Positions 37,340 to 38,352 of a stretch of DNA of 40,135 bases are shown here, piece by piece. This DNA is from a virus. Lineage: Duplodnaviria > Heunggongvirae > Uroviricota > Caudoviricetes. Location: IMG/VR virus record IMGVR_UViG_2547132278_000018. The stretch is one strand, 5' to 3'. A program made the translations under genes and the position numbers. Numbering within the stretch: the first letter of the stretch is position 1; each line of letters starts with the position of its first letter. The notes beneath the pieces were generated by a model that had not been told where the DNA came from, ran no database searches, and was given only the letters and a program-made list of their open reading frames with translations.

Positions 37340-37340
37340 A

Positions 37341-37382
37341 ACCGTAGCACGTCGTATGCAAGAAGATCGTGCTGCGGTTTAT
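37341..37382. terminator. Putative bidirectional terminator between convergent invertase and GIY-YIG genes
   Basis: Imperfect 11-bp inverted repeat ACCGTAGCACG / CGTGCTGCGGT; weak U-tracts. Confidence 0.35.
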
Positions 37383-37399
37383 GCTTATCACTTAAAGAC

Positions 37400-38173
37400 T
37401 CAAAAATTAGGTGAGTAACGGACCGGGGACATAGCTCCTTTTTTTCTTAATTCATCTGGTATTTTTTTTCCAAGATAAAGATTTGCTATTTCAGGTGGGG
37501 CTTCTCGACCTTCAAAACCATAGCGAGAACTTTGTGTTGCCTCAAAGTCCGGATCCTCGTCCCAGTATTTCATCGTAGGGAAATTTTCACGTGTTGATTT
37601 GAGCCATTTATCAGCAATGAAAACCCCTCGAACGATCCCCCTTACAGTAGCAAGAATGACTTCTGCTTGGCTGGCGCGAGAGACATTAATGCGCCAGCTA
37701 AATCGAACCGCATCATAAAGCTCTGAATCCTTTGCACTTCTGTTAACGGAAATCATTAATGCTTTATGATGAAATGTTATGGTTTCGGGTTGATATGTTG
37801 CTATCAACTCTTTGACATGCGCGGCGCCGAATTCATTGCTGCCAGCACCATTCATGATATTCGTTAACCCAGGGTAGGCATCAATAAGTGCTGCTTCGAC
37901 TTCGTACGCCGTCTTTTCATCAGTCATTCCGTGTCGATGGATGACATGGATAACCTCAAGTCCTGCTAACCTTATTTCTCTAATTTGCTTTAGCTTGTTG
38001 CTCAGTAACTCGTCATCATCGGTCGCTGCCACTTCACCGCGCATATGGGCAAATACGCGGTTACCTTTGCCTTTCCCTACATAGAAGGTGCTTCCGTCCC
38101 TAGGATCAATCAATCGGTATACATACCAGCCAAGGTGTTCAATTACTCCAGAAGGAAACTCAGTAATATCCAT
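37400..38173 (-). CDS. GIY-YIG nuclease-domain protein with about 170-aa C-terminal domain of unknown function
   Basis: Start at MDITEF (an upstream TTG gives 274 aa); GIY-YIG-like motif [28 protein letters not shown]. Confidence 0.7.
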
Positions 38174-38352
38174 TTTGCAATATCTGTGAATTATTTGTGA
38201 GACGTATATTAATGAACATTGCAAGGGCTCACAACTAGTAGTGTTGAGAAAGCCATCGGGAAAATGAGGCTAACCCTTTGAATTTACATAGCGCAAAAAG
38301 ATACCTTTCCTCATAATGTGAGCTAATTTTATGTTTCGTTTGATGATCGGGT

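Follow-up and report, generated by a model that had tools for sequence, protein, structure and literature searches.

A predicted CMoRE (PD-T4-3) type IV restriction gene next to pin in an e14-like prophage

Introduction

CMoRE, short for Cytosine Modification Restriction Endonuclease and originally called PD-T4-3, is a modification-dependent restriction enzyme of type IV that works as a single protein. The family comes from a functional selection in Escherichia coli ECOR68 (Vassallo et al. 2022, PMC9519451, as cited in PMC12923530). Structures and biochemistry of the proteins from strains O157:H7 and APEC O1 were reported under the new name by Liu et al. (Nat Commun, January 2026, PMC12923530). 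The gene treated here lies directly after a pin-type invertase gene in a viral stretch of 40,135 nucleotides, IMG/VR record IMGVR_UViG_2547132278_000018, which as a whole is called the window. It is very probably an intact copy of CMoRE carried as cargo by the prophage at its tail-fibre/invertase end, and it belongs to a feature that is already known, with the family found in 2022 and the mechanism and structure described in 2026. An earlier note, made from the letters of the window, had proposed a single-gene nuclease defence at this place that would resemble type IV restriction or serve as an abortive-infection effector.

CMoRE lowers the plating of T2, T4 and T6 about 10^5-fold (PMC12923530). 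The purified protein degrades DNA with 5-hydroxymethylcytosine (5hmC) or glucosyl-5hmC (ghmC) and spares DNA with cytosine or 5-methylcytosine (5mC); likewise, of the T4 variants, T4(hmC) is restricted but T4(C) escapes (PMC12923530). Cleavage has the pattern CN11/N9G with 2-nt 3' overhangs, requires two modified sites, and shows little sequence specificity (PMC12923530). The enzyme is a tetramer, and the V92S/L96S change or the deletion of the beta1-beta2 loop abolishes both oligomerisation and defence (PMC12923530). The active site is covered by an acidic loop of 15 residues, inserted between helices alpha2 and alpha3, and the C-terminal domain binds 5hm-dCTP, whose hydroxyl bonds to the Y127 main chain (PMC12923530). 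A Capnocytophaga homologue, 48% identical, is also a modification-dependent nuclease and cuts Mu DNA as well (PMC12366544).

Identity of the gene after pin

The gene identity, its intactness, the conservation of named functional residues, and the genomic setting were obtained here. In the ORF listing of the window, the minus-strand open reading frame (ORF) covers 37400..38224 and encodes 274 aa from the most upstream in-frame TTG. The supported coding sequence (CDS) starts at an ATG, and its protein begins MDITEF and ends after 257 aa. This start is the one given for the RefSeq CDS WP_000355484.1 in the near-identical genome NZ_LR883006.1, and it is also used by the crystallised homologues. 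The span of 37340-38224 in the earlier note holds as a minus-strand ORF, but not at its edges: 38224 derives from the upstream TTG and moves to 38173 with the supported ATG, and 37340 is the first base past the pin stop codon, with the stop-side edge of the CDS actually at 37400. Between positions 36700 and 38500 the window is 100% identical to NZ_LR883006.1, and 16700..40135 contains 2 mismatches; the left end of the window differs.

Searches of the window protein agree on the family. The PADLOC profile PDLC04031 PD-T4-3 matches residues 1-256 over profile positions 1-255 of 256 (E 2.4e-140). A PDB sequence search returns CMoRE of O157:H7 (9U75/9U8D, E 3.7e-172) and of APEC O1 (9U7U/9U7Z, E 1.1e-150), both at full length. 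Chance matches would not come near such values. Pfam detects a LEM-3-like GIY-YIG domain at residues 28-110 (E 2.1e-14), PHROGs places the protein in the function-unknown family phrog_5356 (E 2e-143), and NCBIfam gives no match for it. The family comprises 6562 proteins at E <= 1e-5.

The window protein and CMoRE of O157:H7 have the same length and are identical at 253 of 257 positions (98.4%). The four differences, T51A, E55D, Q169K, and N197H, fall at none of the residues named as functional. CMoRE of APEC O1 is more distant, with 219 of 257 positions identical and 38 differences (85%). Y17, Y19, Y31, R39, D52-D53-D54-E55, R80, V92, L96, and Y127 are all present in the window protein. The GIY-YIG motif, claimed earlier from the sequence, appears as Y17-V-Y19-R-L, F30-Y31-V-G-K-G-K-G-N-R39, and H43. 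Among 31 homologues, down to 56% identity, the invariant residues are Y17, Y19, Y31, R39, H43, E93, N105, and Y127. We infer from this invariance and from the GIY-YIG consensus that R39 and E93 are the catalytic Arg and Glu.

The features that define a CMoRE are found in the window protein. It has the 'GIYxY-YIG' motif with three tyrosines, the Arg, and the Glu. It has the acidic autoinhibitory loop, which reads DDDE as in APEC O1 and is DDDD in O157:H7; residues 50-54 of this loop are disordered in the AlphaFold2 (AF2) model, with a predicted local distance difference test (pLDDT) score below 50. It also has the C-terminal CMoRE-fold sensing domain, including Y127. The interface residues V92, L96, and R80 are kept, the sequence across the tetramer-interface regions is identical to that of O157:H7, and a tetramer is predicted for the window allele. 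The system consists of a single component, as the cassette conserved in four genomic contexts holds CMoRE alone and its neighbours vary between contexts (pinE, a tail-fibre assembly gene, an AraC regulator, or a Dcm-type methyltransferase).

On these grounds the gene after pin is, with very little doubt, an intact copy of CMoRE, and the part of the earlier proposal that named a single-gene, type IV restriction-like defence agrees with the experiments on the 98.4%-identical protein (PMC12923530). The RefSeq name of WP_000355484.1 is 'LEM-3-like GIY-YIG domain-containing protein', which says nothing beyond LEM-3-like GIY-YIG about a gene carried by about 15% of complete E. coli genomes; the present assignment therefore has annotation value.

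Intactness and expression

The best of the alternatives is that CMoRE is a silent or non-functional relic, a passenger of the prophage end in the host strain; it is nevertheless very unlikely. Nothing contradicts the assignment to CMoRE. Several observations speak for the relic or limit the assignment. Neither a minus-strand promoter nor a canonical terminator of the CMoRE gene came out of a strict scan. A relaxed scan gives a weak candidate sigma-70 promoter about 33 nt 5' of the ATG, a match to consensus only (8 of 12 positions), which falls within the upstream stretch conserved in all four contexts. With its native promoter, the APEC O1 homologue shows little activity (PMC12923530). Frameshifted copies occur in other strains, for example in ETEC1730, which makes the gene dispensable. 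Q169K and N197H are located in the sensor domain. The right flank of the gene is also a patchwork of relics, among them a tRNA-Ser fragment and an insertion sequence (IS) remnant.

On the other side, the frame is intact, all functional residues are conserved, and about 190 nt upstream of the gene are conserved in four different contexts. Driven by its own promoter, the O157:H7 allele is highly active (PMC12923530). In strain NILS69 the native gene guards against Tevenvirinae, and its deletion sensitises the cells to T-even phages. We infer that the window allele is expressed and has the same specificity.

Proposed mechanism

The published mechanism is expected with high confidence to apply to the window allele, given the conserved residues. 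Its steps rest on experiments with the 98.4%-identical protein and are transferred here to the window allele. CMoRE would assemble from two dimers into a tetramer. The C-terminal domain would bind DNA with 5hmC or ghmC, and not with cytosine or 5mC, and a dimer would read two modified cytosines about 21 bp apart. The N-terminal GIY-YIG domain, with Y17/Y19/Y31, the Arg, the Glu, and Mg2+ or Mn2+, would cut between the modified cytosines (CN11/N9G) to leave 2-nt 3' overhangs, and the acidic loop above the active site would keep out unmodified host DNA. Because the enzyme would cut only hmC/ghmC DNA and the lid would exclude host DNA, incoming T-even DNA would be degraded early. The host genome would be spared and the cell would survive, which amounts to direct immunity. 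From the CMoRE gene, the host strain is predicted to resist T-even (hmC/ghmC) phages, which matters when phages are chosen for therapy.

The second branch of the earlier proposal, an abortive-infection or toxin-type effector that degrades host DNA when triggered, is highly improbable. The 4A mutant of the acidic loop is toxic and cuts unmodified DNA, and this indicates a latent self-toxicity (PMC12923530). However, cells with CMoRE survive and grow normally at a multiplicity of infection above 1, as expected of a direct, non-abortive defence. In infected cells T4 DNA is depleted and the read depth of host DNA is unchanged, and neither 5hmC DNA nor 5hm-dCTP switches on the cleavage of ordinary DNA (PMC12923530). 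The window allele retains the four acidic residues of the lid.

The least credible alternative, in effect excluded, is a free-standing selfish GIY-YIG homing endonuclease with no role in defence: a weak match to phrog_314, annotated as a homing endonuclease (E 0.0021), the label 'putative homing nuclease' on full-length jumbo-phage homologues that are 38-45% identical, and the occurrence of the gene as a discrete cassette across prophage contexts speak for it, but the gene lies in an intergenic cargo slot between pin and the tRNA fragment and not in an intron, intein, or host gene, the C-terminal domain has no homing DNA-binding module in Pfam and its fold resembles modified-base readers, I-TevI is only a weak match to the catalytic domain (E 0.69), and the 98.4%-identical protein cuts only 5hmC/ghmC DNA with little sequence specificity (PMC12923530). 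The earlier note had named an intron- or intein-associated homing endonuclease, or pseudogenisation joined with the lack of any phage phenotype, as findings that would overturn the defence reading; the gene is free-standing and its frame is intact.

Comparison with described systems

CMoRE of O157:H7: The window protein shares with it the length of 257 aa, the two-domain architecture, GIYxY-YIG, the acidic lid loop, the interface residues, Y127, and the single-gene organisation. The differences are the four substitutions, one of which changes the lid. The gene order in O157:H7 86-24 is also the same, with pinE, CMoRE, the tRNA-Ser fragment, the AraC regulator, and the IS remnant. In contrast, the prophage is decayed in 86-24 and intact in the window.

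EcoKMcrA: Like CMoRE, the enzyme encoded by e14 of K-12 is of the modification-dependent type IV class and made of one protein, in which a sensor domain is joined to a nuclease domain (PADLOC mREase_IV, E 6.5e-203 for McrA), and its gene also lies directly after pinE at the prophage end. It has no sequence similarity to CMoRE (BLASTP E 2.4 over 7 residues). It has a C-terminal HNH nuclease and is encoded on the opposite strand, whereas the window protein has no HNH match in Pfam. McrA targets 5mC and 5hmC and is not known to target glucosylated hmC. CMoRE differs in that it spares 5mC and cuts ghmC (PMC12923530). The absence of HNH and of similarity rules out the McrA-type HNH class for the window protein, and the position and the functional class alone are common to both.

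EVE-HNH and SRA-HNH enzymes: The VcaM4I/TspA15I group (Lutz et al. 2019, PMC6765204) has an HNH nuclease where CMoRE has GIY-YIG. The domain order is reversed, with the nuclease N-terminal in CMoRE. The reader domains show weak structural similarity and no sequence similarity. The 5hm-dCTP site of CMoRE is at the edge of the domain and not in a pocket (PMC12923530).

UvrC: The N-terminal GIY-YIG domain of UvrC (1YD5 / 1YCZ) is the nearest solved relative of the catalytic domain outside CMoRE (Foldseek probability 0.96), in agreement with the published analysis (PMC12923530). The catalytic Tyr, Arg, and Glu are common to both. The extra tyrosine (GIYxY) and the acidic insert of 15 residues are missing from UvrC, which serves nucleotide excision repair and not defence.

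The C-terminal sensor domain

The large C-terminal domain was called uncharacterised in the earlier note, a description that no longer applies, as it is now characterised as the 5hmC/ghmC sensor (PMC12923530). Liu et al. report a distinct fold for which there is no sequence or structure homologue (PMC12923530). A profile search for a known sensor fold, which the earlier note had proposed, came back empty: in Pfam, residues 130-257 alone give no domain even at E <= 10. Foldseek finds low-scoring matches of this domain to YTHDF2 (E 0.054, probability 0.80), to VcaM4I (E 0.084), and to ZmASCH (TM 0.54). An independent structural comparison gives the same families and, with lower Z, SRA domains and the N-domains of ATP-sulfurylase and Lon. 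The sensor appears to resemble YTH/EVE/ASCH (PUA-like) readers, which is a lead and not a demonstration.

The CMoRE sensor may then be a diverged PUA-like modified-base reader and not a new fold. If so, CMoRE would be the GIY-YIG counterpart of the EVE-HNH and SRA-HNH enzymes and would fit the known pattern of a PUA-superfamily reader joined to a small nuclease (Lutz et al. 2019, PMC6765204). Recognition in the DNA-bound state could use a flipped base in an aromatic pocket (invariant Y153, W160, W190, F198, and Y233) in place of the edge site that free 5hm-dCTP occupies.

Distribution and cassette structure of CMoRE

The CMoRE gene is present at >= 95% nucleotide identity in 837 of 5426 complete E. 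coli genomes, and the arrangement pin-CMoRE-tRNA-Ser' occurs in 561 of these 837. Four contexts were aligned: the window, O157:H7 86-24, strain R12, and ETEC1730. In O157:H7 86-24 the locus is the same as in the window, and an intact CMoRE lies in a decayed prophage. In R12 the gene ahead of CMoRE is one for tail-fibre assembly, and the prophage is lambdoid and lies at ssrA. In ETEC1730 it follows an IS66-disrupted invertase gene, and the copy is frameshifted. The block conserved in the four contexts begins at the hairpin between pin and CMoRE and ends inside the anticodon stem-loop of tRNA-Ser (...GGTCTCGAAAACCG).

Beyond the conserved block, R12 and ETEC1730 have a Dcm-type methyltransferase and a type II endonuclease. 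A Dcm-type methyltransferase is compatible with CMoRE as a neighbour, because CMoRE ignores 5mC. In both strains (R12, locus 5001..8857; ETEC1730, locus 5001..8851) the three genes form a small defence cluster at a prophage end by ssrA.

In O157:H7 86-24 (NZ_CP017251.1 4335408..4346181) frameshifts or truncations have turned the replication, tail, and tail-fibre genes into pseudogenes, and pinE and CMoRE are intact. An intact CMoRE within this heavily decayed prophage is consistent with selection for the gene. The next island downstream in the same genome contains an 'ABC-three component system'.

The 3' fragment of tRNA-Ser(CGA) stands at a thrW locus, and the edge of the cassette in the anticodon stem-loop is a typical crossover position of integrases. 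This junction may be the relic of an ancestral element that integrated at serU.

Virulent jumbo phages also carry full-length CMoRE homologues, with 38-45% identity over 97-99% of the protein. Examples are Serratia phage Moabite (MK994515.1 6406..7161), Pseudomonas phage OBP, and Klebsiella phage N1M2, in which the genes are annotated as homing or GIY-YIG endonucleases. These homologues could be weapons against co-infecting hmC-modified phages.

The slot after pin

The prophage in the window is e14-like and includes a contractile-tail module. Its pin gene is about 95% identical in nucleotides to pinE of e14, and the alignment with e14 keeps about 95% identity through pin and loses homology at the pin stop codon. 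The gene order in e14 of K-12 is stfE - pinE - mcrA - icd'. At the point of lost homology, mcrA lies on the plus strand in e14 and CMoRE on the minus strand in the window. The view that the gene occupies the slot of mcrA is borne out by this comparison. The gene also lies directly after the invertase, as described before; the gap is 60 nt and the two genes are convergent.

The contents of the slot were compared in a sample of E. coli genomes with pinE-like genes. The slot contains mcrA in K-12 and TUM9868, and CMoRE in the window, 86-24, and strain 350. CREC-591 has Septu PtuA/PtuB (E 9.6e-171 and 2.2e-32) and an FRG-domain protein. EH10-18-47, at the same thrW-paoD locus, has one NucC-like nuclease of the PD-(D/E)xK type with DUF6602. 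FORC_081 has a hypothetical protein and a Ppl/TrlF-type ATPase (E 2.9e-99), and JNEC-KY208 has a 215-aa hypothetical protein followed at once by host genes. Among 31 loci in other Enterobacterales species, many have host or tail genes straight after pin, and a few have defence-type matches (McrA, a retron-type reverse transcriptase with an ATPase, PtuA, and a type II methyltransferase). This survey gives counts of families and not of single loci, and includes phages with tail or host genes after pin, so that it lends loose support to a variable end slot.

Pin marks a prophage end with variable, often defensive, adjacent cargo, and the cargo slot begins at the pin stop codon. McrA, CMoRE, Septu, Ppl, and the NucC-like nuclease may replace one another after pin in e14-like prophages. 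A limited literature search found no description of the slot, and Hochhauser et al. 2023 is silent on e14, pinE, thrW, invertase, mcrA, and tail fiber. The novelty that remains lies in the PUA-like reading of the sensor and in an exchangeable defence slot after pin. The two taken together, with the sensor as a highly diverged PUA-like reader, have about an even chance of being correct. The PUA-like lead could guide a re-examination of base recognition, and the slot could guide the mining of one more prophage hotspot.

Prophage setting and other features

The features around CMoRE are collected in Table 1. The hairpin between pin and CMoRE has no canonical T-run and is a probable bidirectional terminator.

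Table 1. Features of the window at and around the CMoRE gene
Feature	Position	Strand	Basis
pin-type serine invertase, last structural-module gene of the prophage	36785..37339	+	Pfam Resolvase (E 1e-50) and HTH_7
GC-rich hairpin (13 bp) in the space that separates pin from CMoRE	37339..37380		RNA fold -22.5 kcal/mol, z -3.6, 0/200 shuffles as stable
CMoRE / PD-T4-3 coding sequence (predicted)	37400..38173	-	257 aa plus stop
Codons for D52-D53-D54-E55 (autoinhibitory lid loop, four acidic residues in a row)	38020..38031	-	residues read; role from 4A mutant of O157:H7 CMoRE (PMC12923530)
Candidate sigma-70 promoter of the CMoRE gene	38206..38234	-	-35 TTGTGA 38234-38229, 17-nt spacer, -10 TAATAT 38211-38206
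3' fragment of tRNA-Ser(CGA), anticodon arm to CCA end	38353..38415	+	100% identical to 3' 63 nt of annotated tRNA-Ser genes (K-12, many other genomes)

The tRNA-Ser fragment lies about 180 nt upstream of the CMoRE ATG. It aligns with serU. Rfam gives only sub-threshold tRNA-like matches to the fragment, and ARAGORN calls no tRNA there. A plastid UTR match on the opposite strand was set aside, as it reflects tRNA-like sequence. The fragment had been described earlier as a tRNA-derived attachment (att) fragment. It is tRNA-derived, with the 3' 63 nt of tRNA-Ser, but the resident prophage has its att at thrW and not here.

A P22-type tyrosine integrase gene (1990..3153, minus strand) lies next to a 46-nt 3' core of thrW (1930..1975). 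No second thrW att core was found within the window. In NZ_LR883006.1 a second 46-nt thrW core is located at 23796..23841 of the compared locus, beyond the AraC-family regulator gene and the IS remnant; this corresponds to window position ~40495, about 360 nt past the window end.

Window positions 1..1975 differ from the proA-thrW junction of NZ_LR883006.1. They comprise an extra island whose P4-type integrase (443..1765, minus strand) has the domains Arm-DNA-bind_3 and Phage_integrase, and after the island no more of thrW remains than its 3' 46 nt, which form the P22-type att core. This arrangement implies tandem integration at thrW. The 80-nt 'tRNA-Thr' that ARAGORN reports at 1896..1975 has a 5' half unrelated to thrW and was rejected as a tRNA gene in favour of an att remnant.

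The AraC-family regulator gene (38988..39740) has a GC content of about 34%, compared with 44-60% in the prophage. The CMoRE cassette is on one side of it and an IS3-family integrase-core remnant (39782..40135) on the other, and it falls within the thrW att bounds in the reference genome. The same gene is the 3' neighbour of CMoRE in O157:H7 86-24 and strain 350, and it has no PADLOC match.

An intact Pin-type invertible tail-fibre segment occupies 34769..36727, with 24-nt inverted repeats at its ends (88% complementary). It carries alternative tail-fibre C-termini and oppositely oriented tail-fibre assembly genes at 35244..35846 (plus strand) and 35818..36261 (minus strand). Six iteron-like repeats with 15-nt spacing (TCAAAATCTGACNCG) are present at 9156..9278. 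In NZ_LR883006.1 coordinates they map into the helix-turn-helix (HTH) replication-initiator gene of the prophage, an arrangement that resembles the lambda-type ori within the O gene.

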